Positions 9,449-64,000 of a stretch of DNA of 64,000 nt are shown one piece after another. Every line of letters starts with the position of its first letter. Positions within the stretch are counted from its first letter, which is position 1. Under the pieces are notes generated by a model. The model had not been told where the DNA came from, searched no databases, and saw only the letters and a list, made by a program, of their open reading frames with translations. A program made the translations under genes and the position numbers. Location: contig JBDRRF010000041.1 of the NCBI GenBank assembly GCA_043825875.1, positions 1-64,000 on the forward strand, given 5' to 3'. This stretch comes from Pseudomonadota bacterium (lineage in GTDB: Bacteria > Desulfobacterota > Desulfobacteria > Desulfobacterales > RPRI01).

Positions 9449-10210
9449 TTATGCAATTAGAATCAGACCGCCATCTATTCCAATAAATTGTCCGTTTAGG
9501 TATGATGCACCTTCACTAGCCATAAAAGCTAATATTTGTGAGCAATCTTCATAAGCCTTACCAAAATGCCCGACTGGTATCTCGCTTTCTATTCGACTTG
9601 CAGCGTCCCGCCCCTGTGGGGTCATATCATAAGCTTCTGTTCTTACAATGGGCAAGCATGCATTTGTTACAATACCAAACCCACCCCATTCTTTAGCTGC
9701 GTTCCGTGTAAGTGCCATGATGGCTCCTTTTGCCATTTCATATGCAGCAAAACCTGGTGCCCCTACCAGGCATGAATGTGAAGAAGTATTAATAATACGC
9801 CCATATCCCTGCTTCTTCATATAGGGGTAGCACTTTTGCATAAATAACATAGTTTGTAATGGTCCTGTGACAAAGGCTTCGAGCGCACCTTTTGGTGTGA
9901 CACCGGTCAGATAAGTCATATCTTGCAATGCACCCTGAGCTATATTGGCAAGAACATCAACGGTTCCAAATTCTTTAATAGTTGTATTAACGACATTATC
10001 GATGTCTTCTTCATTTACCACGTCGCAAGTAACGGATATGGCGGTACCTCCTTTTGCGGCAATTTCTTTAACAAGAGCCTCCAGTTTTTCCGTACGGCGT
10101 GCAGTTATCACAAGTTTAGCTCCCTCTTCAGCAAATCGAACTGCACAGCCCCTGCCTACTCCTGAGCTTGCTCCTGTCACAATAGCAATTCTTCCTTCAA
10201 GAATACCCAT
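9449..10210 (-). CDS. SDR family oxidoreductase
   Basis: TGASSGVG, YEMAK; start set at ATG 10210 (GGAGG RBS). Confidence 0.9.
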   Translation of the reverse strand: MGILEGRIAIVTGASSGVGRGCAVRFAEEGAKLVITARRTEKLEALVKEIAAKGGTAISVTCDVVNEEDIDNVVNTTIKEFGTVDVLANIAQGALQDMTYLTGVTPKGALEAFVTGPLQTMLFMQKCYPYMKKQGYGRIINTSSHSCLVGAPGFAAYEMAKGAIMALTRNAAKEWGGFGIVTNACLPIVRTEAYDMTPQGRDAASRIESEIPVGHFGKAYEDCSQILAFMASEGASYLNGQFIGIDGGLILIA

Positions 10211-10305
10211 CTGAATCCTCCTGATAGTCATACATCATAGTAATTGGATTTCGACTATGCATACATTGCTTCATAAGCTCACATAAGCAGTGAAGCAAGC
10301 CCATC

Positions 10306-11481
10306 TCAACGCCCCGGATCGCTGAGAAGATGACCAAAGCGCTTACGATATTGTGGAAATTGTTGCATAATGGCAACAGAATCAAACCCGAAATCCTCTG
10401 CATTGTAATGGTGGCTGCCATGTTTTGATTTTGGATTCTCGGCAATATATTGTTCTATACGGCGTATATGTTCGGCACTGAAGGGTAAATCAAAATGCTG
10501 ATGAATGCGGCGAACCTGGCCAACCGGGTCGAGTACCGTGTCACGATAAGGAATGTCAAGCACTCGCGCATCGAGTTTTGGATCACGCGCACGTGCTGCC
10601 GTACTACGCTCAAGACATGCTCCAAACAAATGTGCTGCCAGTTGGCCAATCTCCTTCCGCTTCGCACGCGGATCATTCATATGAAATATAGTCCAGATAA
10701 AATTCGAACCAGAGGGAATCGTCCGTACCGGATCACGATGTGTCTGAACGAAACACGCGTCCGGATACGTTGCGGCCAGCTGATCGAGATTAAGCTGATG
10801 CATCGGTTCTTTCAAAGTCCAACGGCCACGAGGACCTTTCCACTGCAATTGTTGCAGCACTCGCTTATGCGTGCGATAGAGACCCTCAATCGGGGTATCG
10901 GCCAGCCAGTGTACGAAACGAGGTACACCATAAAATGAGAATAATCGTGCGCTGGCAAAATGCAGAGCCATTAAATAGAGACAATCCGCCGGCATAGTGG
11001 CGCCGAATGGATGTATTTTCTTTAATTCCGGCAAGGCCGCAAACATGCCTTCGAGTTGTGCCTGCATTTGAGCAATTCTGGGATCGGTGTCGAATGTAGC
11101 AGCCTCAGGCGCAGGCCATGGCCTTGCGGTTTCCCATACAAGAGGTGCACGGGCAGCCGGGTCGAGAGCCATAAGATCATGCAGAATCGTTGTACCGGTT
11201 CGGGACAATCCGATAAGAATAATCGGGCGTTTGATTTTGATTGCAAGTATTTCAGGATACCGGCGCTCATCATCCACAAGCCTGAGTCTGGTAATCAATA
11301 GATCAATCATGTGCTCTGTAAAGCGTTCAACCAATTTAGGCAAAGGATCGGTCTCGCACAGGGCCTCGACAAGAACCGTAAGGCCTATACGAAATGTTTG
11401 GTCAGACCCCCAATCTGAAAGACCGGAGCGATGTTCTGCTTCATGTATAAGTGTAGTAACGCTAAGTTCCATGGATTTCAT
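10306..11481 (-). CDS. Sulfotransferase family protein (mycobacterial Stf-like)
   Basis: PAPS-binding loop GLSRTGTTILH, WTLKEP, FVQTHRDP, C-terminal KHGSHHY. Confidence 0.85.
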   Translation of the reverse strand: MKSMELSVTTLIHEAEHRSGLSDWGSDQTFRIGLTVLVEALCETDPLPKLVERFTEHMIDLLITRLRLVDDERRYPEILAIKIKRPIILIGLSRTGTTILHDLMALDPAARAPLVWETARPWPAPEAATFDTDPRIAQMQAQLEGMFAALPELKKIHPFGATMPADCLYLMALHFASARLFSFYGVPRFVHWLADTPIEGLYRTHKRVLQQLQWKGPRGRWTLKEPMHQLNLDQLAATYPDACFVQTHRDPVRTIPSGSNFIWTIFHMNDPRAKRKEIGQLAAHLFGACLERSTAARARDPKLDARVLDIPYRDTVLDPVGQVRRIHQHFDLPFSAEHIRRIEQYIAENPKSKHGSHHYNAEDFGFDSVAIMQQFPQYRKRFGHLLSDPGR

Positions 11482-11486: not shown

Positions 11487-12509
11487 CTACCCGGATAGTT
11501 CACACATGCCGTAGCCGACCTCATTGTCCCATTCAAAGATAGAACATGACTGGCTCATCAAGACTTCGCAATCAACAACAAGTCCATGAAAGTCTAAAGA
11601 AATGCTCTTAGTCTTTTCGCCAGGCTTGCCTTCGTTCCAGGTCCCAACAGGAATCCACGTTGTCTTGACATTTCTGCCCTTAATGTGCGCTGTTCCAAGA
11701 GCGCTCTTCAATATAACCGTATAAGGCGGTAATTTCGGAACACGATCAAGCTCCGGCACCTGGAGAACTTCTGCGCGATGGACCTGTTTATTTTCGAAAA
11801 TATATGCTTCGCTAAAATAAGGAATATTGCGCTCCTTATTGAGAACTTTCAGACCGAATCCTCTGCCACTCGGAAAAAACCCGCAGACCCAGGCATGGCT
11901 TTTCATGCCGGTCATGTCGCGTGGACCCCGTACATGTGCCCGCAATCCGACACCCTCAAAGTTCCACGACTCGGTCGCAACCTTAATCTGACCGACTGCT
12001 TTTACCAGTTGTTCGTATTTTCCGAGAAAGTCGCTCTGTGTCTCCACTGCCGCAGATTGATTGCCAGGCCCTGTGCTCAAAGGGATAATCCATGGCTCAC
12101 CTTGTGTTGTTGCCCGGATGTCGACATCGACATGGGTTGTGGGCCCTTCGCAAACCAGGCCGCGCGCCTGCTGTTCTTCGGTTGTAACAAGTGCCTTGCC
12201 GGTCCAGCGATAACGCCAGGATCTAAAAGGTTTTTCGCAATGCAAGCTAAGATTTGTTCCGCCCGGCTCGTTGCCCTTTGTAAATGTACCTTCGGATTGT
12301 GTTATCAAAATTCGTCCATCGGGTAGAAACAAGCTGGCACGTTCACAAGCCCTGCCCGCCGTAATGCCATGGAGATGAAGGTTTATTCCAATATCTTTCG
12401 GGCCGTCATAAAACCAATTATTAAATGTCTCAACCAGGTTGGGTATGTGCGATGCCGTCGTCAGCGCATAATCAAATTCTTGACGGAGACCACCGTTAAA
12501 ATTGTCCAT
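11487..12509 (-). CDS. Uncharacterised beta-rich protein (tocopherol cyclase/AttH-like clan, DUF7064-like)
   Basis: ETFNNWFYD, PFRSWR, YEQ...GQIKV...GVGLRAHVRGPR, terminal GYGMCE; ATG 12509 with GGAG RBS. Confidence 0.6.
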   Translation of the reverse strand: MDNFNGGLRQEFDYALTTASHIPNLVETFNNWFYDGPKDIGINLHLHGITAGRACERASLFLPDGRILITQSEGTFTKGNEPGGTNLSLHCEKPFRSWRYRWTGKALVTTEEQQARGLVCEGPTTHVDVDIRATTQGEPWIIPLSTGPGNQSAAVETQSDFLGKYEQLVKAVGQIKVATESWNFEGVGLRAHVRGPRDMTGMKSHAWVCGFFPSGRGFGLKVLNKERNIPYFSEAYIFENKQVHRAEVLQVPELDRVPKLPPYTVILKSALGTAHIKGRNVKTTWIPVGTWNEGKPGEKTKSISLDFHGLVVDCEVLMSQSCSIFEWDNEVGYGMCELSG

Positions 12510-12710
12510 AAGCTTTCTCTCCAGACCTTGCAAGCAAGGTGTTCCCACGAGCCTATATATCAGGTATTTTGTGACGTGATAAAAACTTGCTTTTAAAATT
12601 TAATTAAAAAGCTTAAAATAAGATATAGTACTATTTATATATTTTATATCATTTGCTAACAATAAAATAAGGATTAAGCAAATTTTCCTTGTTGAAATAC
12701 AAATTCTAAT

Positions 12711-13283
12711 TCATGTTTTGCATATCCTGCTTCTTAAGTATTTTATCAGATATAAAATACTGCCGGTTAATATTAGCAGCACTACTAATGCGCCTAAAAT
12801 CCATTTAAACGATGAAAAGATACTAGTTATTAATGCCACATTTGGATTAAAATCAGGTAAGCTTGAAATCATAAAAAAAACCCCGATATTTTCAAAATAA
12901 TCACAAAAGGCCGCAGCAAAAGGAAGTATTATAATCCCCTTAATCCTGCTATCGGGAGATACAATTCTTTTAAACAAAGCTGATATTATAAGAGTAAAAG
13001 ATATGGCTGAAATTAGTGGGTAAATTGAATCTAATATGAAAAAATAATGCAAATAAAGTCGAAGGCCTTCACTTGATGTTGTCGTTAACCATTTTCGTGC
13101 GTATTCAACATTATATCCTATGATAGCATCAGGTAGAGTTAGTCCATTAGAATTTAGTTTAAGACGGGGTATAACATCTAACATAATTATAGTACTAAGT
13201 ATTAATGTGAAAAATAACATAACCGAAATTATTTTCCAGACGGCATTTTTTTCAATCAATTGGAAAATACTATTATTTCTCAT
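12711..13283 (-). CDS. Hypothetical membrane protein
   Basis: 190-aa AT-rich ORF, about four hydrophobic segments, LDSIYP and DYFEN motifs. Confidence 0.7.
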   Translation of the reverse strand: MRNNSIFQLIEKNAVWKIISVMLFFTLILSTIIMLDVIPRLKLNSNGLTLPDAIIGYNVEYARKWLTTTSSEGLRLYLHYFFILDSIYPLISAISFTLIISALFKRIVSPDSRIKGIIILPFAAAFCDYFENIGVFFMISSLPDFNPNVALITSIFSSFKWILGALVVLLILTGSILYLIKYLRSRICKT

Positions 13284-13569: not shown

Positions 13570-14784
13570 TCAAGTTTTATACAGTCCGGAATCTTTAAGC
13601 CACAAAAAAGTATAACCTTCAATATTATCATTTATTTTCATTTTCACAAATGATTCGAAGCTTTCCCTTTTTGGTATTTTTACTTCAACAGAATCAAAGT
13701 GCTCCGGTATAGGATATTTGCCATATGCATTAACTGCGGCAATAAACGCATGCACATGTTCAGGGGGGGTATCAGCATTTATATTGTTTAAAAAAAGAAT
13801 GAATTTCCCGCCGGAAGCCCCCGCCTTGATATATCTTTTAACACGTGCGATTATCTCGCTGACCGGTCCTTTTTCTAATAGAGATGCATCAAAGCCTATT
13901 TGCAAAGGTATACTGTGTTTGTCTGAAACATTTTTAAAAAACTCAGGTCCTATAATATTGACATCAGGATCCAATGCCAACAAGCATGTATTCATTGTCA
14001 TCTTTAAGCGAGCTTCGACAAGATCCATCGGATTTTTAAGATATGTATCTCCCCAGTTACCTGCCGACATTGCAATAAAGCCGGGTATTTTCAAATTATC
14101 ATTTAAATATTGAACATAAGGTACAACAAAATTATTCATAATCTTCATATTTATAAGAGGTATGCTGGCCCAGGCATCCGCCAGTATTACATTTTGTGCT
14201 TCGGGAAACTGATTCTTAAGGTCTCTTATATATGGAATCATGAGGTTGTCACAAATGCTTCTTAGCATCTCATGAACGAATTTAGGATCTGATGCAATGG
14301 AAGCAATCAGATTTTCGTATCCATAGATATTGCAGGCAGTACAAAAGGGGGAAGAAGCAACCAAACCCGTTCTTGGTAATCCGGTATAATCTTTAGCAAG
14401 TTTGTAGCTATCTACTAATTTGCTGAAACGCCCTGCATACAGTCCGTTAAACCTGATCTTATCGATATCGTTTTTATCTTGAATAACATAATCAGAGCGA
14501 TCTATATCCGGAATATGGTTTGGGAAATATTTTATTTTTTGTCCGATGGATTCAGGTTCAATGTTGTAGACATCCCATTGAGGTTCAGCTACAGTAATGC
14601 CATAGTATTCTGTTAGAAGCAAACTTATCTCGATAAGTGTAAGTGGATTTGTAAATACCTTATCAAAACTTATCTTGGCCATTTTACAGACATGTCCCGG
14701 AAACTGGGCTGAAACCGGAACCTTTATCGGGGTATCAGTAAAAGCTGCACCTAATATACGAATGCTGTCATACCAATAACTCAT
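13570..14784 (-). CDS. Uroporphyrinogen decarboxylase / MtaA-CmuA methyltransferase superfamily protein
   Basis: SPFCTACNIYGYENLI, DPKFVHEML, ADAWAS, GGKFILF...TPPEHVHAFIAAV. Confidence 0.8.
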   Translation of the reverse strand: MSYWYDSIRILGAAFTDTPIKVPVSAQFPGHVCKMAKISFDKVFTNPLTLIEISLLLTEYYGITVAEPQWDVYNIEPESIGQKIKYFPNHIPDIDRSDYVIQDKNDIDKIRFNGLYAGRFSKLVDSYKLAKDYTGLPRTGLVASSPFCTACNIYGYENLIASIASDPKFVHEMLRSICDNLMIPYIRDLKNQFPEAQNVILADAWASIPLINMKIMNNFVVPYVQYLNDNLKIPGFIAMSAGNWGDTYLKNPMDLVEARLKMTMNTCLLALDPDVNIIGPEFFKNVSDKHSIPLQIGFDASLLEKGPVSEIIARVKRYIKAGASGGKFILFLNNINADTPPEHVHAFIAAVNAYGKYPIPEHFDSVEVKIPKRESFESFVKMKINDNIEGYTFLWLKDSGLYKT

Positions 14785-14827: not shown

Positions 14828-16774
14828 TTATATTATTCTTCCGATATTATATCCTTCATATATCGCATCAATCGCCTTACGGGGTGCCGCACAATCTCCA
14901 ACCGCGTATAACTCTTTTACTTTATCTTTCAAAGCATAATAGAGTTGATTATCGGCCCGGTTGCCCATTACCGAAACCACTGTATCTACATTTTCTATTT
15001 TTCTTTCAGCTTGCGTATAAACATTAAATACGGATACCGTATTTCCCGAAACCGCCTTTATAGCTGTGCTGGGGCTGAAAACCACCCCTTTATTAAGTAC
15101 TCTTCGTTGGTATGCGCCCAAATCCGGGCTACTCATAAGTCCCATACCAATAAAGAGTAAAGGTGATATAGCTTCTACTTGTTTGCCCATATCTGTTAAA
15201 TGCTCAATAACGCTCAGAAATTTCCAGTGAGCCTCCCCACCGTCAAGTACTACCACTTTATTCCCAATATCAGCTTTTCCGGAAATAGCATCCCGTTCAT
15301 TGATTACATTAGCCTGTTCCATGCCTGGCAGCGGTGGTATAACAGGCTGAGAACCGGTAGCAACCACTACTGCATGCGGCTGTTCCCGTTCAATTATCTC
15401 CGGTGTTACTTCTACACCGGTATGAATCTTTACTCCCAATATCTCCATCTGCTTTGCCAGGTATCTCGTAATACCTCCGAATTCAGACCTTCCGGAAGCT
15501 TTCATTGCAATGCTGACCTGTCCTCCCAATTCTTCCTCTTTTTCATACAGGATCACTTCATGGCCTCTCAACCTGGCTACCCTGGCCGCCTCCATCCCGG
15601 CAGGCCCACCGCCTACTACCAAGACCTTCTTCTTGGGCGAGGCCGGCGCCAAGGTACCGATTTCTCTTTCAAGTCCTACTACAGGATTCTGCAAACAAGA
15701 CATGGGCTTTCCCTCAAATAATCTGCCCAGGCACCCTTGATTACATGCTATGCAGTAACGAATCTCTTCTATCCTTTTTTCCCTGGCTTTGTTGGGCCAT
15801 TCCGGATCAGCAATAAGGCCCCTTGTCATACCCACCATGTCACCGTGTCCATCAGCTAATATTTTTTCTGCCTGTATCGGGTCATTGATCCTGAAAGTGT
15901 TAATTACAGGAAGAGAAACCGCTTCCTTGAATTCAGCCGCGTAGGCGCTGTGAAACCCTAATGGAACCTGCATTCCGCAGCCCACTGCCACTTGAATTAT
16001 ATAGGGGGGATGCCCGATATGAATATAATCTATCTTTCCTGTAGCTTCCAGCAGCTGAGCAATCTCTTTCCAATCATTTAAAGTAAGCCCGCCTGGAACC
16101 AAATCATCAGCAGGAATCCTTATACCAACAACAAAATCACTTCCCACGGCTTTGCGTATTGCATCAATTACTTCCATTGTCATACGCATCCGGTTCTCCA
16201 GATTGCCCCCATAATCATCCATACGTTTATTAAAATATGAAGACATGAATTCATTAAGCAGATAACCATTGGTACCATGAATTTCTACCCCGTCCATACC
16301 GCCTTTTTTTGAGTGGAGTGCCGATATAGCAAAGGCCTGAACAAGATTTTTGATATCTTCAATCTCCATTTCCTTGGGTGTCTCACGCATTACCGGGCAG
16401 GCAATTGCCGATGGAGCCAGAAGTGGCTGCCGACTATGCCCGCTTTCCATTTGCCTGCCACAATGACTAAGCTGCATTATAATCTTCGTACCATAAGGGT
16501 GCACCGAGTCAGCCAGACGCTTCAACATCGGTACCGACCTTTCTTCAAATATTTCCTGGATATTCAGCATTCCTTTGGTACTTGGCGCTATGGTCATGCC
16601 ACCAGCAATAATGAGCCCCACCCCGCCTTCAGCGCGCATTTTCATATATTCTATATATCTGTCATCTAGTATATTATCCTTCGCAAAGGACGTACCGTGA
16701 GGGGCAAAACCTATCCTGTTGTTAACAGTTATAGATCCTATTTTAATCGGCATAAATAAATATTTATATTCCAT
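14828..16774 (-). CDS. Old yellow enzyme family flavoprotein (FMN, 4Fe-4S, FAD; FadH/BaiCD/NCR-type architecture)
   Basis: RAEGGVGLII, EIHGTNGYLL, DDYGGNLENRMR, CIACNQGC...C, GGGPAGMEAA; ATG 16774 after GGAGGA. Confidence 0.9.
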   Translation of the reverse strand: MEYKYLFMPIKIGSITVNNRIGFAPHGTSFAKDNILDDRYIEYMKMRAEGGVGLIIAGGMTIAPSTKGMLNIQEIFEERSVPMLKRLADSVHPYGTKIIMQLSHCGRQMESGHSRQPLLAPSAIACPVMRETPKEMEIEDIKNLVQAFAISALHSKKGGMDGVEIHGTNGYLLNEFMSSYFNKRMDDYGGNLENRMRMTMEVIDAIRKAVGSDFVVGIRIPADDLVPGGLTLNDWKEIAQLLEATGKIDYIHIGHPPYIIQVAVGCGMQVPLGFHSAYAAEFKEAVSLPVINTFRINDPIQAEKILADGHGDMVGMTRGLIADPEWPNKAREKRIEEIRYCIACNQGCLGRLFEGKPMSCLQNPVVGLEREIGTLAPASPKKKVLVVGGGPAGMEAARVARLRGHEVILYEKEEELGGQVSIAMKASGRSEFGGITRYLAKQMEILGVKIHTGVEVTPEIIEREQPHAVVVATGSQPVIPPLPGMEQANVINERDAISGKADIGNKVVVLDGGEAHWKFLSVIEHLTDMGKQVEAISPLLFIGMGLMSSPDLGAYQRRVLNKGVVFSPSTAIKAVSGNTVSVFNVYTQAERKIENVDTVVSVMGNRADNQLYYALKDKVKELYAVGDCAAPRKAIDAIYEGYNIGRII

Positions 16775-16855
16775 CTTTGCTATATCCTCCAAATAATAGG
16801 ATTAAACGCATATAGTTGTAACTATAATCAAAGCCCCATTTTCTCAAAATAATTC

Positions 16856-18187
16856 TCAGGGCTTAAAGCGGTTTTCAATATCTCCTGCTACTATCTTTGC
16901 TGTTAAAGCACAAGCTGGGCTCCCACCTGCCCATCCGCCTTTTATGGCTACGCCGTCTCCGACATTGTATAGGTTTTCTATTGGAGTCTTTTGCGGAATG
17001 TCTTTATAACCTACTATAGGCGCATTGGCCAGAGTCGGCCATTCTCCCCAATAGCAACCAACATGCAGGACTTGTCCGTATTTGTTGAAGTCAGGCACAC
17101 AATCTTTTAAATCCTGGATATGTAAATTTACTTCATTTCTTAAATTCCAGGAAGATGTCTGACTTACCGGACTGGAGATGGAATAATGAATATATTTTCC
17201 TTTAGGGGCCAATGCAGGACACACATGAGAAATAGATACGAATGAAACTAATCTGCGTGTTTCATAGGTATACAAAAGGGGAACATCAAACAAAGGTCTG
17301 TCGCTGATGGTTGTAACCCAGATTTGAAGTGAAGGAACCATATTCATAAGTTCTCTTAAATAACCTTTGTCAAAATATTCTTTGCCTGCAAGAGCCACAG
17401 TTTTTTTCGGGCCTGTATTGCTTATTACCGCTCTTGCCAGAACTGTCTTCTCTCCTTTCTTATCTTCAAAAACGGCGCCTTGTGCGATTCCGTCTTTAAC
17501 CAGAATTTTTTTGGCTCTGCACTGGGTGAGAACTTTGCCCCCTTTCTCTTCTATGACATTTTTAAGCGCTTTCATCAATGCCATGCTTCCTTCAGGAGCG
17601 AAACCTACGCCACTCTGGAAATCTTTTATGCTCCCGGCGAAGGACTGAAAATATTCTTTTGCCGATACCTCATGAGCACGAGTGCTTAAAACACGGTCGC
17701 TCAGATTACTATAGTATTCTATGAGTTTCTCATCTCTTGTATATTGATTAAGATAATCTTTCAGAGATATTTCATTTGAAGGAAAATTCCAGGTCTGAGC
17801 TCTGTTTATTCCGTTTTTTAAAGCCTCTATTTCTTTTTTATCGCCGCAAAATCTGGATAAAATGGCATCCGGCTGATTGCTTTTAGACATATCAATAATT
17901 TCATTATCAATGCGATGCTTTGGTGGAATTGTCATGGGAGTCACATCAAACTCAGCACCGACTTCATCAAAAATTGTTTTAAAAGATCCGGCCATAGGTA
18001 CACCAAGTAGGCCGGTTGGAATTTTATAACCTTTATACTTTAACGTAGCGCATCTTCCACCAATTATAGGTAATTTTTCTACCACTATCGTTTTATAGCC
18101 CTTTTTTGCAAGCAGTGCTGCCGAACAAAGCCCGCCTATCCCTGAGCCCAGAATCACTACATCGCATTTTTCCTGTTTTTGTTTCAT
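16856..18187 (-). CDS. Phytoene desaturase family FAD-dependent oxidoreductase (COG1233)
   Basis: GSGIGGL...VVEK...GGRC, LAPKGK, KTPIENLYNVGD. Confidence 0.85.
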   Translation of the reverse strand: MKQKQEKCDVVILGSGIGGLCSAALLAKKGYKTIVVEKLPIIGGRCATLKYKGYKIPTGLLGVPMAGSFKTIFDEVGAEFDVTPMTIPPKHRIDNEIIDMSKSNQPDAILSRFCGDKKEIEALKNGINRAQTWNFPSNEISLKDYLNQYTRDEKLIEYYSNLSDRVLSTRAHEVSAKEYFQSFAGSIKDFQSGVGFAPEGSMALMKALKNVIEEKGGKVLTQCRAKKILVKDGIAQGAVFEDKKGEKTVLARAVISNTGPKKTVALAGKEYFDKGYLRELMNMVPSLQIWVTTISDRPLFDVPLLYTYETRRLVSFVSISHVCPALAPKGKYIHYSISSPVSQTSSWNLRNEVNLHIQDLKDCVPDFNKYGQVLHVGCYWGEWPTLANAPIVGYKDIPQKTPIENLYNVGDGVAIKGGWAGGSPACALTAKIVAGDIENRFKP

Positions 18188-53209: not shown

Positions 53210-53224
53210 ATGTTTTTCCTACCG

Positions 53225-54664: not shown

Positions 54665-54718
54665 AATTAAGTTTTCCTTATAACCACTCCCCAGCCATGC
54701 TCCGATATCCTGTCAGCT

Positions 54719-54961
54719 CTATCCGCCTGCCAACGGCTTTAGTATGATGACACAATCTCCATCGTATAGAACTTTCTCTTTTGCTACAGCTCTTTGCTTG
54801 ATCATGAAGCACGTTCCTTTATCGATTGCAAGATTGCCGAGCTGCTCGCTCAAAGATCGTACCAGATCGCTTACTGTAGCACCTTTGGGCAACTCAACCG
54901 AATACGCCTCTTTGCCACCCATGGCCTTTCCAGGCAAATAGAACTTGACCGTAATAATCAT
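54719..54961 (-). CDS. moaD: MoaD/ThiS family sulfur carrier
   Basis: Ubiquitin-like size, ATVSDL, L.DGD.V.I..PLAGG with terminal GG; next to an AOR; start could be GTG 54970. Confidence 0.82.
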   Translation of the reverse strand: MIITVKFYLPGKAMGGKEAYSVELPKGATVSDLVRSLSEQLGNLAIDKGTCFMIKQRAVAKEKVLYDGDCVIILKPLAGG

Positions 54962-55017
54962 AGCATCCACTCATTCAGCGATATTTCTTTGGAGATGTCC
55001 CAGCCATTTGGGCAGTG

Positions 55018-55827: not shown

Positions 55828-55872
55828 ATTTAATATCCTTTGCCTTTAGATTGATTGCTGTTTAACGCATAG

Positions 55873-57729
55873 TCATGCATATAGATCCCGCGCCACGTTC
55901 TCCATGCCTTTCATAGCCTCCAGCGCGCCCCGCTCAGGTTTGCCGGTTTCACGATTCCAACCCAGTGCCGCAAAGAACTTTTCTCCCATCATCTTATGGT
56001 CGACAGCTACGCCGGCAGTAGGCCCTTCTTTCAAAGGCGGTTCTCCCACAATTCGGGCAGGCATTTGAATGCCTGTAGGTACCAAACCCTCACGCAGGTT
56101 AAAGGCATGCCTCATAGTCAAAATGCGCAGGCCGGTTTGGTACATGTCCTGATCGTTAAAAGGCATTCCGGTTATAGCCGCGATATAAGACGGCAGAGAG
56201 CCAAATGGAGATGCAAACATAAAGAACATGCAGAAACCTGAAGCATTGAGTACCTCCATATAACAAGTGCCTCCCACGTCAGCTTGACCAAAAGAAGGAT
56301 CAGAAGGCGGAATCCCTGACAATCCACCACCACCTTTACAATGGCGACCCGGTGTCGGATCGTATTGGAAGGTCCGGGCCACTACAGGCTGCAGTCTGGG
56401 ATCGTGCATGCCGGGCTCTATACCTGAAAAAGTTATCAGGCACTCGGTTCCCTTGCCCCAGATTTTGGCTGCGCCTGCCGAGCCCCGGGCCAGTACTTTA
56501 CCGCATCCATTCTGGTCGGCGATCTTTTGTGTGATCTCCACCACGGCCTCGGCGTTTCCCCATTTCAGATCAATGCCGTCCAGGTCCTCTTTGGTGAGCA
56601 CCCCATTCTCATAGCATTCCATTGCCCAGGCCAGGGTAGAACCAGCTGATATAGTATCCAGGCCGTACCGGTTGCAAATTTCATTGCACTTCAGGATCGC
56701 TTCCACATCGTCAACCAAAAGAAGCGTGCCAAAGGCGGCGGCTGTTTCGTATTCCGGCCGTTCGGTCTCTCCCAAAGGCCACTTGCCAGAATCCACACGA
56801 TATACTGCCCCACACTTGAGCGGGCAATTTGCACAGCCATATTTAGCAGTCTTATACTTGGTGTCAAACGACTGCGAACCGATTTTCTGCGCCTTCTCCT
56901 CTCCGAAATCAACAATGCCCACACCTGCCCAGTTCTTCACCGGCGAGTCACCGGACAGGGCTGAAGCCGTGGTAGTTGCTCCTGTACCCAGTGTCTTGAA
57001 TCCGGTCACATACCAACCTATAGGGTCATCCGGAGGATTTTTTATAATCGCCATGCAGGCCTTGTTCAGTTCATTTACTTTTGCCCGATCAGCCACCGGA
57101 ATCTTGCCGGTCCCATGGACTGCGATGGCCTTAAGCTTCTTTGATCCCATCACGGCGCCTGCACCGCCACGGGCCGCAGCTCTGTGCCCGTCATTTATAA
57201 TACAGGATATCAGCGACAGCTTTTCACCCGCAGGCCCGATAACTGCTGCCCGCAGCTTGCTCTCGCCCGTCTCCTTTTCAAGGGCCTTTTGGGTATCTTT
57301 AGAATCGAGACCCCAGAGGCGACTTGCGTCGCGGAGTTCGGCCTGTCCATTTTTAATCCACAGGTATACCGGTTTTTGAGATATTCCTGAGATAAACACA
57401 GCATCGTAACCGGCCTTCTTTAACTCCGGGCCGAAGAAACCGCCAGAGTTGGCGTCATTAAAACCGCCGGTAACAGGCGATTTACATACAACTGTGTAGC
57501 GTCCTCCTAGTACCGCCCCAGTCCCGGTTACAGGGCCGGTTACAAACCCCAGAATGTTATCCGGGCCCAAAGGATCGGTACGGGGTTTCATCCTGTCATA
57601 CAAAACCCTGGCACCGATTCCATATCCCCCAAAGAAATACATAGCAAGGTGATCGTCAAGTATCTCTTCGGTGATGGCGCTTGTGGTTAGATTGACAAAG
57701 AGAATTTTGCCTACATATCCACTAAACAT
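55873..57729 (-). CDS. aor: Tungsten aldehyde:ferredoxin oxidoreductase, AOR3 (classical type)
   Basis: KSPVTGG, ELKKAGYD, RAAARGG, CANCPLKC, PEYET, NRYGLDTIS, HDPR; ATG 57729 after AGGAGG. Confidence 0.92.
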   Translation of the reverse strand: MFSGYVGKILFVNLTTSAITEEILDDHLAMYFFGGYGIGARVLYDRMKPRTDPLGPDNILGFVTGPVTGTGAVLGGRYTVVCKSPVTGGFNDANSGGFFGPELKKAGYDAVFISGISQKPVYLWIKNGQAELRDASRLWGLDSKDTQKALEKETGESKLRAAVIGPAGEKLSLISCIINDGHRAAARGGAGAVMGSKKLKAIAVHGTGKIPVADRAKVNELNKACMAIIKNPPDDPIGWYVTGFKTLGTGATTTASALSGDSPVKNWAGVGIVDFGEEKAQKIGSQSFDTKYKTAKYGCANCPLKCGAVYRVDSGKWPLGETERPEYETAAAFGTLLLVDDVEAILKCNEICNRYGLDTISAGSTLAWAMECYENGVLTKEDLDGIDLKWGNAEAVVEITQKIADQNGCGKVLARGSAGAAKIWGKGTECLITFSGIEPGMHDPRLQPVVARTFQYDPTPGRHCKGGGGLSGIPPSDPSFGQADVGGTCYMEVLNASGFCMFFMFASPFGSLPSYIAAITGMPFNDQDMYQTGLRILTMRHAFNLREGLVPTGIQMPARIVGEPPLKEGPTAGVAVDHKMMGEKFFAALGWNRETGKPERGALEAMKGMENVARDLYA

Positions 57730-57800
57730 AAGGGTACCTCCTATTTTCTTGCATATAAAAGTACAAAAACTTACTTTTCCTACAAAAGCGATACCGGGAC

Positions 57801-58802
57801 TTATTTTGCCTGAGATCCGACAACCGGTATAGCACCCATGACTTTTATCTGGTTGCCCTCTGTTATAATAGCCGCAGAACGTGTGCCCACAATAAAACCT
57901 CTGTTGCCACCAAGAAGAGCAGTACCGGAAAACCAATTAAGTTTTACCTCCAATGGCACGGGAATGGAGCTCCAGGTCTTGCCGCTATCGTTGGTTGTGA
58001 CAATCGTACCACGATCTCCGGCAGCGATTCCGTAATTCTCGCCCAATTTAACATCATAAAGGGCTTGCCCCTCTGTCGATTCGCCGGTATTGGCTTTAAT
58101 AGGCTGCCAGGTATGACCTCCGTCATCTGTTATCAGCATGATGCTGCTCAAACCAACGGCTACCCCGTGCTGCTTTGAAGAAAAGGATATCCCAAAAAGG
58201 GTCGTTTCCGTGCCTGACTTTTGGGGAGACCAGTTCTTACCACCGTCTTCCGTATGCAGTATCGTCCCGAATTCCCCGGCCATCCAGCCTTCCTCTTCCC
58301 CCTTAAAATCGATAGCGTATATGATAACATCCTCCGGGTAGCTCCTGTCCTCCCAGGTCTTGCCACCGTCTTCCGTATAGAAAACAGCTCCCCAATCCCC
58401 TGAGGCCCAGCACTTTTGAGGGCTTACGGCCTTAACCGCAAGTAGTTGTTTTCTTTTGGGAGCCTTCTGCTCCTCCCAGGTTTTGCCGCCATCAACAGTA
58501 TGAAATATTGTCCCGGATTTTCCTACAACCCAGCCTGCTTTGGAATCACAGAAAGAAATGGACAAGAGAAGAATTTCCGTTGCTATGGTTTGCCTTTCCC
58601 AGTTCCTTCCTTCATCTGTAGTATGATACACAGAGCCCCTGGCGCCTGCGGCCCATCCCTCCTTGTCACCGACAAAACATACTGAATAAAGGTGATCGCC
58701 ATAGACTTGCTTTTCTTCCGTAGCATAAACCGAATTGCCGGTGAAAATCAGCAACACTGATAACAATACTATTGTAACAAAAGGGATTCTTTTCTGTTTC
58801 AT
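57801..58802 (-). CDS. YCF48/BNR-repeat exported protein, copy 2
   Basis: Paralog of 38301-39320; Asp-box repeats; start may be 58802 or 58826. Confidence 0.9.
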   Translation of the reverse strand: MKQKRIPFVTIVLLSVLLIFTGNSVYATEEKQVYGDHLYSVCFVGDKEGWAAGARGSVYHTTDEGRNWERQTIATEILLLSISFCDSKAGWVVGKSGTIFHTVDGGKTWEEQKAPKRKQLLAVKAVSPQKCWASGDWGAVFYTEDGGKTWEDRSYPEDVIIYAIDFKGEEEGWMAGEFGTILHTEDGGKNWSPQKSGTETTLFGISFSSKQHGVAVGLSSIMLITDDGGHTWQPIKANTGESTEGQALYDVKLGENYGIAAGDRGTIVTTNDSGKTWSSIPVPLEVKLNWFSGTALLGGNRGFIVGTRSAAIITEGNQIKVMGAIPVVGSQAK

Positions 58803-58838
58803 CTTTTTCCTCGCCACCCTCTTCATGATTATTTTATT

Positions 58839-61250
58839 TTAAGCCCTGTATTTATGTAAAATCTTTTCCGGACCGATGATAGAAACCAACGCCGGTAAAA
58901 CCGTGAGAGCCCCCACCATGTTGGCAACCAGAAGAAAAGCCAGCAACATTGCCATTTCAGCCTGGAATTTGAAGCTGGCAAAAACAAAAAATATGACCGA
59001 CACCACCAGTGTGGTGGAAGTAAATATGATGGCTTTTCCCGTTGTTGTAATAGCCATATAGCGGGCCTTTGTGTAGTCACCCTGGCTGAACTGATATTCT
59101 TCCGCCAGCCGGCTTAAGATATAAATGCCGTAGTCTACACCTATGCCTACGCCCACCGATGCCACCGGCAGCGAATTGATGTTCAAATCGATTCCCATTG
59201 TCAGCATCAAAAGATCGCTCAACACCTGAGACACCAACAATGGTATAAAAAGCACCACCGCTCCCCACCAGGTTCTATAGGCAATTGTGCAGAACAGGAA
59301 AGTGGCGCCAAATATAAGGCCCATGTTAATCCAGTAGGACCATTCCACTTCCTCATTTACGGCAGCAAGAATTCCCAGGATGCCGCCCGCCAGATGGAAG
59401 GTCACCTGCTTGGCCGGATTATTCCTGATATATTCTTTAAGAGACGAAAGGGCCTTTTTTATTGACGTATTGTTATAATCACGGAAGTAAAGTGTTACTG
59501 TCGCATTGGTATTCTCGGCAGCTACGTATCGGTCCATCTCGCTGCCGCTTGTAGACCCGGCGATCAAACGCAATACCTGTTCCACATCCCCCGATTTTTC
59601 CGGCAACATAGCCCACTTGGGATTTCCTTCATGAAACATCCTGAAAACTGTTTTAATCATGTCGCTGATGGTAACGGCACCTCCAACGGAGGGTATGTGA
59701 TTGGTGGCATACCTTCCCATATCATCGATGAGTCTTACTGTTTCTTCATCCGCGATCGCTCCTTCCTTTTTGCCTTCGGCGACAACAATAAGCTGGCTGG
59801 AGCCGATAAATTCCTTGTTTATAAGATCGCCTGCAATATTATAGGGATGATCATCATACAAGATAGCCTTGCCGGCGCTGGTATCACCTACCTTCAGATA
59901 CTTTTGTGTAACATAACCGCCTCCAAAGATAATTAAAATAACCAGTGCCAGGACAACCCACTTCCTGCTCCCCTGGGACAAAGCAATCAGCAATTCACCC
60001 AACTTCACATAAATTTTATCACCTGGACGGGCGGTAATACTTTTAATTTTTTCTCTGGCCTCATCTATACTCAGACCGGCCAGTTGTCCTTTCTTTAAAT
60101 GTTTTGCCCGCGGCGGAGGTAAAAGCGAAACCAGCACGGGGTGCATGACAATTGAGCTGACATAGATAGAGATAATCCAGAAACTACCGTAGATGGCCAG
60201 ATTACGCATAAGCGGGATACTGGCCACAGCGATGGTTAATACCCCCAGGCCATCGGTGATCAGTCCCAAAATGCCGGGCTTGTATAAATAGCCGTAGGCG
60301 TTGATAATAGCTTCCTTCTGTTCCCCAACGGCAGCATATTCCTCATGGTACCGTTCCATGGACTGGACGGAATGGCTCAAGGCCCTGGCTGATAAAAGCA
60401 GCGGCACCACCAATACCAGAGGGTCAACGCTTATATTCAGGGCAGCGGCAAACCCCAGGCCCCATATAGCGCTTACCAGCGCTGAAATCATTGGAATGAA
60501 GATCCCCATAAAACTTCTAAAATACCACCAGAGCAAAATAAGCATAACTACCCCGGTTACAATAAAAACATTATATAGCTGAGGGGTATAGTGAGCTATC
60601 CATGCATAAAGCATCGGGTATCCGGTAATGTAAAGGGTGTTGTTATCATCGTCTGCTTCCGACTTGATCTTCTTCATTTCCTTGAAAAGATTATCAAGAT
60701 CCAGACCCTCTTCCCAAAACCCTGCGGATATCAAAGCCGCTTTATCATCGAGGGAGACATACATACCACGCACTCCCTCGTTGCTATAGACCTTCTCCTT
60801 TAAAATTTTCATTTCCTCCGGAGTCTCTAACACACCCTTCACTATGGGCTCGATATTGATTCCCCCGGCACCCACACCGTAGTTCTTGAGCCTGGGATGA
60901 GTCAGTGAGATAATCTGCAGATTATCCACCCCTTTGACGGCCATGATTTGTTTGGTGATCCGGTCCACCTTTTTAATAGTTTCAACGTTATAGATGTCAC
61001 CGTTTTTCACCACTAAGGCCAAGGTCATCACATTCGCCGTACCGAACATGCTGCGATATTGCTTATAAAGCTCGATATACTCATGTTTTGGAGGATAGAG
61101 ATCAAAAAAATCAGTGTGGACTCTCAGACTGAAGCACTTGTAACCGAAAAACAGGGTTCCTAAAACAATCAGCGTCAGCATCAGAACAGGACGACCTACA
61201 TGAAATTCGACCAACTTTAACCAAATTGTCTTTTTATGTTCGCTTGTCAT
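58839..61250 (-). CDS. MMPL/RND-family transporter, copy 2
   Basis: Same length as and collinear with 39431-41842. Confidence 0.9.
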   Translation of the reverse strand: MTSEHKKTIWLKLVEFHVGRPVLMLTLIVLGTLFFGYKCFSLRVHTDFFDLYPPKHEYIELYKQYRSMFGTANVMTLALVVKNGDIYNVETIKKVDRITKQIMAVKGVDNLQIISLTHPRLKNYGVGAGGINIEPIVKGVLETPEEMKILKEKVYSNEGVRGMYVSLDDKAALISAGFWEEGLDLDNLFKEMKKIKSEADDDNNTLYITGYPMLYAWIAHYTPQLYNVFIVTGVVMLILLWWYFRSFMGIFIPMISALVSAIWGLGFAAALNISVDPLVLVVPLLLSARALSHSVQSMERYHEEYAAVGEQKEAIINAYGYLYKPGILGLITDGLGVLTIAVASIPLMRNLAIYGSFWIISIYVSSIVMHPVLVSLLPPPRAKHLKKGQLAGLSIDEAREKIKSITARPGDKIYVKLGELLIALSQGSRKWVVLALVILIIFGGGYVTQKYLKVGDTSAGKAILYDDHPYNIAGDLINKEFIGSSQLIVVAEGKKEGAIADEETVRLIDDMGRYATNHIPSVGGAVTISDMIKTVFRMFHEGNPKWAMLPEKSGDVEQVLRLIAGSTSGSEMDRYVAAENTNATVTLYFRDYNNTSIKKALSSLKEYIRNNPAKQVTFHLAGGILGILAAVNEEVEWSYWINMGLIFGATFLFCTIAYRTWWGAVVLFIPLLVSQVLSDLLMLTMGIDLNINSLPVASVGVGIGVDYGIYILSRLAEEYQFSQGDYTKARYMAITTTGKAIIFTSTTLVVSVIFFVFASFKFQAEMAMLLAFLLVANMVGALTVLPALVSIIGPEKILHKYRA

Positions 61251-61364
61251 CAATTACTCCTCACAATGATTAATTGTGTCTTCAACTTTAATGTTCTCAA
61301 ATAGAGCCAAATCCTTAAGTGCCTCGCATGAACGGGAAAAATGTTTTGTAATTATTTCTCATTA

Positions 61365-61421
61365 TTTGGGGACTAATTCCATATGTTTCATATCGTTGAA
61401 AAGATGAAATCAGTCCCCGCA
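61365..61421 (-). promoter_or_regulatory. Conserved intergenic stem-loop between DUF1329 and MMPL genes (operon 2)
   Basis: TTTGGGGACT...ATGAAATCAGTCCCCGCA; counterpart at 42073-42131. Confidence 0.6.
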
Positions 61422-61477
61422 CAAAAAACGCCCCTGAATGATTCTATTCTGAAAGCATCCGGGCATTAACCGGCCTT

Positions 61478-62803
61478 TTATTTGGACAGGGCCATTAAAT
61501 TACTCTTCGTGAAAAAATCCATCGACATCCTGGAAAGAGGCATACACATCGCGTAGTTATCGCCCTCTGCATTGATGTGAATGGTTACTGTGGCATGACG
61601 GGCCTTTTCGTCAATTTGTGTCTGGTCATGCATTATCCCTGCATTATTATCACCATCCGGGGCTTCGTTATAGTCTCCGACATTAAATGTCCAAGTTCGG
61701 AATTCCCCGGCCTTGGTATCTATTTCCTTCATCCAGATCTCGTTGGTCTCCTTATCCACCCAATTTCTGTGCAAGCCCCAGGCATAATAAGGATCTCTTG
61801 GCTTCTGCTCAATAACCCAGCATTTTCTGGGAACCCAGGTTGCACTGGTAAGCGCCCACTTAGCGCCAGTCCAGCCGGGAGTGTCATAACCGTATTTATT
61901 CTTAGTTGCGTTCAGGAAAAGCGTTCCATCAGGATCTTTCTTAATCATTGTTTTATTGGTGCTGGCAAAAGGAACAAGGATCGTCTGCTCACCCACAAGC
62001 TTCCATGTCATCGTTCTGTTTTTACCGCCCCACAAGAAAGTCAGATCCTGCCAGCCATCGGACCCCATCCAGGGGTCGGACCTGCTCACCCCTGAGGTTT
62101 GCCGAATCCGCCGGATGACAGGTACATAAGCCATCTGAACCATGTCGCGTTTATCCATATAATCCCAGTCTAACTGATTGGTGTTTCGCATACTGTAAGG
62201 TTCTTTGATTATGCCGAATTCAGCATAAGACCAATGTTCTGGATTTTTGCTCTCCGGCACCGCCTGCCACGTCGGCCGGCCCTGTATGCCCATGAGACGG
62301 GAATCTGAAAGTATATATCGGTGGATGCCCTTGTCGTTATTTACCCATTGAATGCGTTGCTGATAATGATACCCTCCTATACTGCCTTTATTAAAATAGA
62401 CGTTCCACATGATCTTTTCTGCGGCTTTGGGATCTTTTGAATCGATATCGGGAAAAGGAAATCCATAAATATGATACATAGGAATCTTCCCCGTTTTATC
62501 GACCAAATCACCCTCGGCGTTTATTTGAAATTTCCCGGCATTCTTCTGACCCGCCTCCAGAAACGTATTCCAGTGCTTATACTCAAAGTTCAATTCCCCG
62601 GTGTTGAGAATATAGTCACCCCTTTCTACAGCCCGGTAAAGGGCGGGCATGAGTATGTCCTTATATTGTGCGACATTGCTCTTATCTATTGTCTTGGCAA
62701 TTTCCTCAGCCGCCTGGACAGGACCGGCCCCAAACAGCATAACCAACACTGCAAATAGAGAGCAGATCCACCATCCTGAAAATCTAATTGTTTTAGTTCT
62801 CAC
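61478..62803 (-). CDS. DUF1329 periplasmic protein, copy 2
   Basis: Paralog of 42179-43510; GFPFP, AYVPVIRRIRQ; GTG 62803 after AAGGAGG. Confidence 0.85.
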   Translation of the reverse strand: MRTKTIRFSGWWICSLFAVLVMLFGAGPVQAAEEIAKTIDKSNVAQYKDILMPALYRAVERGDYILNTGELNFEYKHWNTFLEAGQKNAGKFQINAEGDLVDKTGKIPMYHIYGFPFPDIDSKDPKAAEKIMWNVYFNKGSIGGYHYQQRIQWVNNDKGIHRYILSDSRLMGIQGRPTWQAVPESKNPEHWSYAEFGIIKEPYSMRNTNQLDWDYMDKRDMVQMAYVPVIRRIRQTSGVSRSDPWMGSDGWQDLTFLWGGKNRTMTWKLVGEQTILVPFASTNKTMIKKDPDGTLFLNATKNKYGYDTPGWTGAKWALTSATWVPRKCWVIEQKPRDPYYAWGLHRNWVDKETNEIWMKEIDTKAGEFRTWTFNVGDYNEAPDGDNNAGIMHDQTQIDEKARHATVTIHINAEGDNYAMCMPLSRMSMDFFTKSNLMALSK

Positions 62804-62868
62804 TTTTCCCTCCTTGTAGCTATCGTAAGAATGAAATAAGCCGCTTGTTATTTTTTTTTCGCTCATGC

Positions 62869-64000
62869 TCACCATTCGTAACCCATTTTTAATGTCAACT
62901 CACTCGTACCTACAAGTCCCGCAAAGCCCGACTTGGCCGTCTTATCTCCCAAAAATGCATGTAAACCCATATTGGCATAAAGATTGGAGGATATTTGCCA
63001 GCTTACAGTCGGATGGATATAACCCGAACCTCCTCCTGCCCCTGACCTTCCAGGATTATAGGCGGCAGCAATCAAGGGAGAAATTCTACCCTGCCACCAG
63101 CTCCAACTCATGTTAAACCCGATTATGTCCATATCTCTTACCGGGCTCCCCGCTTTAGAAGCTTCAGGATGGTTAAAAGCCGAATCCCAACTGTTAATCT
63201 TCTGGTGTATCCACTCCAGGGAAAAACCAATCGGCTCGTGACTGGTAATCCATCGAACATAAATGTTCTTGTCAATTGCTACCATATACAGGGTTACCGG
63301 TTTCATGCGATATGTTGCCAGGCTCATTGGCGCCAGGGTTTTCAATTCCGGTACCGCAAGAGTAACCGGCTGATTTGAATGCTGAGCAATCTCGCCTCTT
63401 AAAACCAGGTCCAACGGTGAGATCTGATAACTGAAATAAGCGCCGTAAACATCCTGGGTCGGATGAGTTAACAAAGCCTTTGTAGGAATCATGCCGACAC
63501 CGGGTATGGTGATAAAATCCGTTAAAACTGTGGCAGGATCATTGTTAACGTCCCGGTAGTAAGCCATTGATAAACTGAGCAACCCAATGTCCGCAGTTAA
63601 TTTTGCCCCATACTCCTGCTTATTGGTGGGCACATCCTGCCTGACATCCAAGCCTCTGAAGGCGGCGAAAGGTAATATGGAAACGTAAGGCGCGTTCATG
63701 CCTGCCGTTGGGTTAAGGGCAACACTGTCCAGTGGCCCGAACTGCGAAGGCCGGATGTCGGGAACCCACAACAAATCAAGATTCAGTCTTAAACCCCCTA
63801 TAGGTGGAGCGCTGTAGTTTAACCTTGCCATCCAAAGAGGAATAGCAACGTCATCAGGGTTCTGAAAAAACAGCTGATAGGATTGATCCTTGGGACAAAT
63901 AACATCCAAAAGGGTGGCGTTGGCCGAAGACTCACCCCAGGAAACGAGCTGCCTCCCCGGCCGGAAGAAAGCACTGCCCAGTGGTCCACCATAAGTAAAG
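62869..64000 (-). CDS. DUF1302 outer-membrane protein, copy 2 (5' end beyond window)
   Basis: Frame stays open to the window edge (GPLGSAFFRPGRQLVSWGE); C-terminal KMGYEW. Confidence 0.85.
   Translation of the reverse strand, partial: FTYGGPLGSAFFRPGRQLVSWGESSANATLLDVICPKDQSYQLFFQNPDDVAIPLWMARLNYSAPPIGGLRLNLDLLWVPDIRPSQFGPLDSVALNPTAGMNAPYVSILPFAAFRGLDVRQDVPTNKQEYGAKLTADIGLLSLSMAYYRDVNNDPATVLTDFITIPGVGMIPTKALLTHPTQDVYGAYFSYQISPLDLVLRGEIAQHSNQPVTLAVPELKTLAPMSLATYRMKPVTLYMVAIDKNIYVRWITSHEPIGFSLEWIHQKINSWDSAFNHPEASKAGSPVRDMDIIGFNMSWSWWQGRISPLIAAAYNPGRSGAGGGSGYIHPTVSWQISSNLYANMGLHAFLGDKTAKSGFAGLVGTSELTLKMGYEW

Follow-up and report, generated by a model that had tools for sequence, protein, structure and literature searches.

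A clade-restricted catabolic island with a sulfotransferase–AttH-fold protein pair in a sulfate reducer that carries the 2-naphthoyl-CoA pathway

The described systems that come closest to the locus analyzed here are the naphthalene pathway of the N47 culture, in which naphthalene carboxylase has four UbiD-like subunits (PMC12016498), and the steroid system of Sterolibacterium denitrificans, in which a kinase and a C-O lyase (25-HSK and the 25-phosphosteroid lyase 25-PSL) dehydrate a tertiary alcohol (PMC8449060, PMC11061730). The 64,000-nucleotide stretch under study (G000:C41:1-64000; hereafter the window) belongs to the genome of a groundwater sulfate reducer that carries dsrA (G000; 4.77 Mb, 99.8% complete, 118 contigs); C denotes contigs of G000, L denotes homolog loci, and G008, G011, G013, G016, G006, and G014 are genomes of relatives. 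The window holds the left part of a catabolic island that is real, confined to one clade, and at least 90 kb long; this part encodes four proteins of the AttH fold (X1 to X4, family X) and a fifth one, Y. The known part of this system is best filed as the central naphthalene pathway and the new part as an undescribed upper funnel plus the cassette built around Y. We give an even chance to the proposal that the region is a CoA-free upper funnel, which would convert substituted naphthalene- or tetralin-core compounds into acids for 2-naphthoyl-CoA reductase (NCR) and would include a sulfation-elimination step.

All parts of the N47-type lower pathway that were sought, namely NCR, tetrahydronaphthoyl-CoA reductase, and a thn operon, were found in the host. 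C44:5068-7044 encodes NCR (match to 6QKG with an E value of 0 and 1447 bits over 658 amino acids) in tandem with a second old yellow enzyme (OYE), and on C111, bzdN, bzdO, and bzdQ exceed the cut-off and precede genes arranged like the thn operon in Table 1 of PMC12016498, several small thn genes being matched by size and order only. NCR orthologs (95 to 98% identity) occur in exactly the five X-positive genomes and in 0 of the 12 others of the genus; bzdO exceeded its cut-off in the same 5 of 17 genomes, and one CoA ligase was found solely in these five. More generally, the whole module set appears and disappears together within the genus. Physical linkage in G008, the relative closest to the host, is a stronger tie between island and ncr than this co-occurrence. 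On G008:C85 the island is followed by ∼7 kb of other genes and then by a regulator of the same family as that of the window, divergent from an ncr operon with the order SDR (short-chain dehydrogenase/reductase), SDR, Mo enzyme, flavocytochrome, NCR, and second OYE. With the N47 culture the host has in common NCR, the OYE in tandem, a reductase of the bzd type, and an operon in thn order; it differs by its large island of AttH-fold, aldehyde:ferredoxin oxidoreductase (AOR), flavoprotein, and transport genes; the accessible part of PMC12016498 does not mention paralogs of the island type for the N47 naphthalene pathway. AtuA, found in the five X-positive genomes and in G014, was dropped as a sign of terpene (Atu) degradation because it is located in the thn-type operon.

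The second difference from N47 concerns the entry into the pathway, since neither a naphthalene carboxylase cluster (multi-UbiD) nor an Nms-like enzyme was found in the 118 contigs of G000. G000, G008, and G011 each have one housekeeping UbiD copy, and the two glycyl-radical enzymes of G000 are ∼30% identical to an 828-amino-acid enzyme of G013. The latter genome carries a four-UbiD cluster and the cluster of this 828-amino-acid glycyl-radical enzyme, neither of them with an ortholog in G000, which we read as probable Nac and Nms, respectively. G013 also has 4 DUF1329 matches, split X genes, no Y, and no pair of reductase-like alpha subunits of the kind found in the island (see below). The split X genes suggest decay, but neighboring genes are split too, so assembly errors may explain them. 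This survey of UbiD and glycyl-radical enzymes leaves at least three well-assembled genomes that have the lower pathway and the island and in which no known entry enzyme was found.

The first-pass annotation had overlooked the fifth AttH-fold gene, Y, and its sulfotransferase partner, which form the left end of the region:

9449..10231, minus strand: SDR that retains YxxxK and closes the Y–sulfotransferase–SDR unit (Pfam, motif)
10306..11481, minus strand: sulfotransferase of the 3′-phosphoadenosine-5′-phosphosulfate (PAPS) type (Sulfotransfer_3), proposed activating enzyme (PF13469 plus motifs GLSRTGTT and HRDPxxxxxS)
11487..12548, minus strand: Y, fifth AttH-fold protein, DUF7064/7065-like, proposed sulfate-eliminating C-O lyase (model, conservation)
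12608..12688, no strand: site of an adenosine-5′-phosphosulfate (APS) kinase gene in a relative, absent here (flanks align at 91-93%)
12711..13283, minus strand: 190-amino-acid hydrophobic protein of no family, which in a relative precedes APS kinase and Y

Y had no Pfam match but resembles DUF7064/7065. Its model (predicted local distance difference test [pLDDT] score of 91) aligned with AttH (Z 24.4) and with 25-PSL (Z 24.1; root mean square deviation [rmsd] of 3.1; 278 residues aligned), a tie. The cationic cluster R198-x-H200-x-R202..R205..H213 is invariant in 22 homologs of Y and is missing from X, and the comparison of X and Y profiles was marginal (probability 54%). Searches with the Y protein and profile against sequences of solved structures, a set in which the presence of the PSL chains was unconfirmed, gave no PSL match. 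Y lies 5 bp upstream of the sulfotransferase gene, the product of which matched PF13469 (E value of 8e-35) and shares an RTGTT loop and HRDP..S with 8 homologs; we take GLSRTGTT and HRDPxxxxxS to be PAPS-binding motifs. A sulfotransferase gene sits directly downstream of Y at 7/7 close-homolog loci (the window, L026, L063, L064, L065, L066, and L069), of which L063 and L064 repeat DNA of the G008 and G011 loci and four represent one clade. The pair was also found in other phyla next to PAPS-supply genes, and in Sphingomonas paeninsulae, where it corresponds to D3Y57_RS04585/RS04590, and in L066 it is flanked by cysD, cysNC, and cysQ. In one relative an APS kinase gene, partially matched in G008, directly precedes Y; the window lacks it cleanly (12608 to 12688), and all 4 Y-positive genomes have an APS kinase. 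Among seven distant Y loci opened (6 of the 15 plasmid hits included), two have a sulfotransferase and three an APH kinase or a phosphoenolpyruvate (PEP)-utilizing enzyme nearby. Distant Y homologs are further found on plasmids of ten Sphingobium Tom strains, which presumably use steroid alkaloids.

Whether the pair is a sulfur analogue of the kinase and C-O lyase, with sulfation from PAPS being followed by elimination, is by analogy about an even call. It is best filed as working like 25-HSK and 25-PSL (PDB 9FZN, 9G2I, and 9G4C) but as no member of that system. The likeness lies in the fold of Y and in the activating transferase that adjoins it. The ATP kinase partner of 25-PSL, however, was not found at any of the seven close loci, where a PAPS sulfotransferase takes its place and, at some of them, PAPS-supply genes stand nearby; sequence identity to 25-PSL is 12%. 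Moreover, Y and its partner are neighbors, in contrast to S. denitrificans, where the surroundings of 25-HSK showed no lyase candidate; no steroid ring pathway was found in the host. Sulfate as a leaving group is familiar from the sulfotransferase-thioesterase module of curacin and olefin synthases, which forms terminal alkenes. That system is biosynthetic, acyl carrier protein-bound, and decarboxylative, with an alpha/beta-hydrolase partner, whereas the sulfotransferase of the Y pair is free-standing, would act in catabolism, and has a partner of the AttH fold. Searches of the open literature, with subscription papers outside their scope, found nothing on the island, on the function of DUF7064/7065, on a catabolic sulfotransferase-lyase pair, or on the structure of 25-PSL.

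The X proteins adopt a related architecture. The model of X4 (pLDDT score of 94) has the two-barrel AttH fold over the whole chain and aligned best with NE1406/AttH (2ICH; Z 26.8, rmsd 3.0, 283 aligned), followed by Diels-Alderases (Z 23.5-25.1), kievitone hydratase (Z 24.6), and 25-PSL (Z 20.2-20.4), all at 9-12% identity. By sequence, X gave no useful match to solved structures and did not reach the Pfam cut-offs of the CrtC, kievitone hydratase, and tocopherol cyclase families; two of the four X proteins came close to Lipocalin_9 (25.0-25.3 bits; cut-off 26.2). X proteins are rare (157 clusters at 50% identity among 1.84 billion representatives) but present in 14 copies in the host, in 4/16 other genomes of the genus, in 0/24 from other families, and in 5/401 genomes of the order, host included, with at most 5 candidates scored per genome. 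Named relatives include a Desulfobacterium sp. N47 record and the marine aerobes Zhongshania, Spongiibacter, Pseudomaricurvus, and Halioxenophilus. Within the scan of aerobe neighborhoods, which covered 116 of 192 non-clade neighbors and some clade genes, X sits among P450s, Rieske oxygenases, CoA ligases, thiolases of the sterol carrier protein (SCP) type, and kinases. In a quick tree, X subfamilies are common to the clade and the aerobic homologs are nested inside. The best-kept polar residues are E33, D198, D267, and R298 (110 full-length homologs). X shares its double beta-barrel and conserved acids with the AttH-fold hydratases and cyclases (kievitone hydratase, CrtC, Hgs, NE1406, and fungal Diels-Alderases) but stands apart as a rare family of its own, with an expansion of up to 14-fold within a single anaerobic clade. 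X proteins may perform acid-catalyzed hydration or cyclization, with separate subfamilies for separate steps; according to 10.1101/2025.10.20.683597, AttH-like enzymes hydrate isoprenoid C=C bonds in carotenoids and archaeal glycerol dialkyl glycerol tetraether (GDGT) lipids. No signal peptide was present in the X sequences inspected, and X adjoins CrtI/CrtD-like flavoproteins at several loci. Single X genes also lie in unrelated contexts on C79, C97, C109, and C110.

Other neighborhoods of X were recorded as well. At 5 of 7 marine gammaproteobacterial loci (L031, L032, L034, L036, and L037; ∼10000-13500), X is convergent with a DAP_DH-family dehydrogenase that shares ∼70% identity with G000:C11:3583-4704; a LysR gene alongside is divergent. 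At L040 and L042, X is clustered with Rieske proteins, a VOC-fold protein, two FAA hydrolases, an SCP thiolase plus ChsH2, and a major facilitator superfamily transporter, to which L042 adds an amidohydrolase and a P450. NCBIfam gave no specific name to the genes of these two clusters, the order of which is reminiscent of resin-acid dit clusters.

The remainder of the window comprises the following features:

13570..14784, minus strand: URO-D/MtaA-superfamily protein, methyltransferase-like
14828..16792, minus strand: long-form OYE 1, 36% identical to NCR
16856..18187, minus strand: CrtI/CrtD-like flavoprotein, directly after X1
18455..19504, minus strand: X1, AttH-fold protein
19618..20544, minus strand: CCG Fe-S protein 1
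20582..22528, minus strand: AOR-family enzyme 1, with CxxCxxC in place of CxxCxxxC
22730..23782, minus strand: X2, AttH-fold protein
23966-26038, minus strand: AOR 2
26041-26634, minus strand: Fe-S subunit of AOR 2
26624-27496, minus strand: CCG protein 2
27662-28360, minus strand: SdhB-like Fe-S protein
28497-30491 and 31252-33168, minus strand: two SdhA-like flavoproteins exported by twin-arginine translocation (Tat), 76% identical
30466-31239, minus strand: SDR between the Tat flavoproteins
33161..37922, minus strand: SDR, X3 (33937-34995), Usp, SDR, and X4 (36813-37922, the modeled copy)
38301..45050, minus strand: envelope cassette 1 with DUF1302, DUF1329, MMPL-type resistance-nodulation-division (RND) protein, and YCF48 (AmeABCD/Nanopod type)
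45803..47785, minus strand: long-form OYE 2
48002..49606, plus strand: divergent helix-turn-helix (HTH) regulator, 10 paralogs in the genome
49793..51310, minus strand: alpha/beta hydrolase PF20091 with hydrophobic N terminus
51503..57936, minus strand: CCG protein 3 (51503-52369), an apparently decayed SDR (52376), SDR (53225), 175-amino-acid membrane protein, SDR (55018), and AOR 3
57801..64000, minus strand: envelope cassette 2 with YCF48, MMPL, DUF1329, and DUF1302, cut by the window end

From 9449 onward, 39 of 40 genes lie on the minus strand and the HTH regulator on the plus strand, as the first-pass annotation had stated. Its module counts also held in Pfam searches (7 SDRs, 3 AORs, 3 CCG proteins, 2 OYEs, 2 SdhA-like flavoproteins with twin-arginine motifs, two DUF1302/DUF1329/MMPL/YCF48 cassettes, and four X proteins 32-67% mutually identical), and 0 of the 40 genes matched the acyl-CoA ligase, thiolase, or enoyl-CoA hydratase families. 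Co-orientation itself is a weak signal, because in five further segments of G000, 43-61 kb long, no more than one gene is opposed. Misassembly, which that annotation had named beforehand as fatal to its proposal, was rejected: the paralogs of the region are merely 60-89% identical at the DNA level and are thus old paralogs rather than assembly copies; G008, a close relative, is collinear with 13570-36713 and, on G008:C85, with 43578-94821; and a separately assembled contig of the probable source run, which is not an independent sample, covers 9129-27499 with zero differences. The modules likewise co-occur in the genomes of relatives. Beyond the window, where the second DUF1302 gene is completed (62869-64470), the island extends as far as the end of the contig (99887) and holds another AOR, an APH kinase, two Mo enzymes that belong to the DMSO (dimethyl sulfoxide) reductase family, a DAP_DH-family dehydrogenase, an AveC-like protein, and two more X proteins. 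Families acting on CoA esters are present in this part, namely an HGD-D pair and two alpha subunits resembling 4-hydroxybenzoyl-CoA reductase (575-599 bits; cut-off 995). Every module is expanded genome-wide (14 X, 16 DUF1329 matches, 12 AORs, and 10 regulators). A simple sigma-54 motif scan gave no minus-strand site, and the single RNA run compared with the region yielded scattered short pieces only.

AFOR_N and AFOR_C domains are present in all three AORs of the window, and CxxCxxxC in two of them; the exception, 20582, matched BamB (177 bits) and AOR (175.5 bits), mostly over its N terminus. The CCG proteins, which have altered cysteine motifs and each adjoin an AOR, SdhB-like, or SDR gene, form a small rare family (9 homologs found, the named ones from the host clade) and are possibly dedicated electron carriers for their neighbors. 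SDR 52376 lacks the catalytic Lys (YTTTE) and, by its sequence, looks like a decayed copy of SDR 53225, while SDR 55018 falls near the coniferyl-alcohol dehydrogenase subfamily (236 bits; cut-off 242). The OYEs of the window were rejected as NCR, given the low identity of OYE 14828 to the true enzyme on C44. The regulator has an HTH_3 at its N terminus; its middle domain is conserved, as is a second block at the C terminus, which contains Cys and weakly matches HTH_23. Several of its paralogs lie beside DUF1302/DUF1329 cassettes. Both envelope cassettes of the window unite DUF1302, DUF1329, YCF48, and an MMPL-type RND protein in one operon. The same four domain families accompany anaerobic hydrocarbon catabolism in the descriptions of AmeABCD from Castellaniella defragrans (PMC6394551), said there to export monoterpenes, and of the Nanopod of the benzene degrader ORM2 (10.1101/2024.12.15.628547), the cluster of which also has a Usp-like gene. 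The host clade differs by its abundance of DUF1329 matches, which number 16-33 in four X-positive genomes, 1 in G006, and 0 in 11 others.

Read from family or fold at each step, the upper funnel could operate as follows. The envelope cassettes would move hydrophobic polycycles across the envelope, be it inward or outward, periplasmic and cytoplasmic flavoproteins would saturate or desaturate side chains or rings, and X paralogs would hydrate or cyclize C=C bonds via the acids E33, D198, and D267. Alcohols would be removed or shifted by sulfation from PAPS and elimination of the sulfate by Y, as with phosphate in 25-HSK/25-PSL; a primary alcohol would become an acid through SDRs and AORs, with CCG proteins carrying the electrons, whereupon the clade-specific CoA ligase and then NCR and the thn enzymes would take over. 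The substrates are at a guess oxygenated naphthalene or tetralin compounds bearing alkyl or prenyl substituents (naphthoquinones, aromatized terpenoids); the pair of reductase-like alpha subunits would match a dihydroxynaphthoyl intermediate, as from a naphthoquinone. Of the first-pass proposal, the CoA-independent peripheral route for hydrophobic substrates agrees with the anatomy of the region, the fold of X, and the co-occurrence of modules, but uptake is not established, PMC6394551 describing AmeABCD as exporting. The range of substrate classes it had offered is narrowed at its destination to the 2-naphthoyl-CoA pathway (by NCR, bzd, thn, and the G008 linkage), with steroid mineralization disfavored. 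Since the arrangement of modules changes from one relative to another and the Y pair moves, the data do not establish one linear pathway.

Several observations weigh against the funnel. The ∼7 kb between island and ncr operon in G008 are unrelated genes, and in G000 ncr is on another contig, without the regulator seen in G008. The five X-positive genomes form one side of a 100/100 branch (G006 not in the tree), so that their shared gene content counts as one event, not five. X and Y are just 9-13% identical to any solved relative, in a fold that also hosts Diels-Alderases, and X occurs in aerobes for which NCR is not established. APS kinase is also present in 4/13 genomes without Y, 2 of the 7 distant Y loci have no activating enzyme, and in G008 and G011 the island does not include the Y–sulfotransferase pair. 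An intermediate case is G016, with a second UbiD and a glycyl-radical enzyme of 820 amino acids that is unclassified. Finally, G000 has only two carboxyl-transferase matches and hence no clear route for a long isoprenoid chain.

Some of these features would fit a stand-alone redox toolkit, in which hydrophobic compounds are oxidized, reduced, or conjugated for energy or detoxification and the products are exported instead of assimilated; the tie to ncr would then be co-inheritance, and the sulfotransferase would make an end product for export. This appears unlikely. The Tat flavoproteins and flavocytochromes, the AOR-CCG pairs, and the many DUF1329 matches do far outnumber the CoA enzymes (8 acyl-CoA dehydrogenases and 9 crotonases), and AmeABCD is an exporter (PMC6394551), but the toolkit leaves aside the physical linkage and the shared regulator family at ncr in G008, and plain conjugation needs no conserved partner with a PSL fold and an Arg/His cluster. 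We regard as quite unlikely that the region is an accretion site of several small independent modules for different substrates. Module order does vary among G000, G008, G011, and G016, the Y pair moves, lone X genes occur in the unrelated contexts listed above, and the X paralogs are old subfamilies including aerobic homologs; long collinear blocks are nevertheless kept in G008, and the whole set is gained or lost together in the genus.

An anaerobic pathway for steroids or sterols after the model of S. denitrificans is very improbable, even though the fold of Y is that of 25-PSL, CrtO-like flavoprotein pairs and APH kinases are present, and distant Y homologs reside on the plasmids of the ten Tom strains. 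The best of six KstD-like flavoproteins reached 183 bits (cut-off 789), and the two Mo enzymes fell far below the ethylbenzene-dehydrogenase model. The CoA toolkit of the host is small, as is its beta-oxidation set (besides the dehydrogenases and crotonases, 12 AMP-binding matches, one CoA-transferase pair, and one UbiD), which, together with the lack of a flavoprotein near the KstD cut-off, argues against steroid mineralization; when tested as IpdAB, the single CoA_trans pair had no NCBIfam match at 1e-45. A connection of AORs to sterol C26 oxidation was considered and found wrong, as the C26 aldehyde is oxidized by an NAD-linked dehydrogenase in S. denitrificans, according to PMC7411048. That the host modifies its own lipids and exports the products through the envelope cassettes is scarcely credible. 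AttH-like enzymes do hydrate carotenoids and archaeal GDGT lipids (10.1101/2025.10.20.683597), and HAE3 transporters include hopanoid exporters (PMC6394551), but no prenyltransferase, cyclase, or synthase was found among the 40 genes by Pfam, and the AORs, the many SDRs, and the P450s, Rieske oxygenases, and CoA ligases next to X in aerobes point to catabolism.

As far as our literature searches go, the origin and the groundwater use of the naphthalene pathway of sulfate reducers are open questions, for which the proposed upper funnel names genes of a different way into 2-naphthoyl-CoA; a genome with ncr does not necessarily activate naphthalene. A wider version, which we consider doubtful, holds that the N47 clade fed ancestrally on natural compounds with a naphthalene or tetralin core (such as aromatized terpenoids or the prenylated naphthoquinones of dead cells), that the island was the original entry to NCR and thn, that Nac and Nms are later add-ons in one lineage where the island now shrinks, and that a new catabolic dehydration, by PAPS sulfation and AttH-fold elimination, also operates in sphingomonads and mycobacteria. 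The Y–sulfotransferase–PAPS cassette suggests a function for DUF7064/7065 as lyases paired with a kinase, a dikinase, or a sulfotransferase. A kinase-plus-lyase version of the activation-elimination logic is possibly represented by L044:137-15817 (G000:C89), where DUF1329, four AveC-like membrane proteins, tandem CrtO-like flavoproteins, an APH kinase, and two weakly AttH-like ORFs were recorded. In sequence searches against solved structures, C89:13204 matched AttH weakly and C89:14831 gave no useful match. The tandem CrtO-like pair recalls, in our estimation, CtmAB and the steroid delta-24 desaturase.

Another locus with a regulator of the window's family and an MMPL gene, L062:3046-16850 (G000:C67), contains two URO-D-family methyltransferases, a corrinoid protein, an electron-transfer flavoprotein, and a pterin-binding methyltransferase, a set that to us recalls the estradiol methylation system EmtABC. 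The left end of the window (127-7555) encodes MetV/MetF, then two glutamate-synthase FMN-domain proteins and an 885-amino-acid GXGXG protein, i.e., split glutamate-synthase-like genes beside methylenetetrahydrofolate reductase. A 142-bp intergenic element at 7565-7706 (second copy at 1-139) has 264 copies over 60% of its length on 81 contigs, with ends resembling an inverted repeat, and may be read as like a miniature inverted-repeat transposable element (MITE) or a repetitive extragenic palindrome (REP). Two further intergenic repeats, at 9037-9150 and 22606-22675, have 11 and 2 near-full genome copies, respectively.

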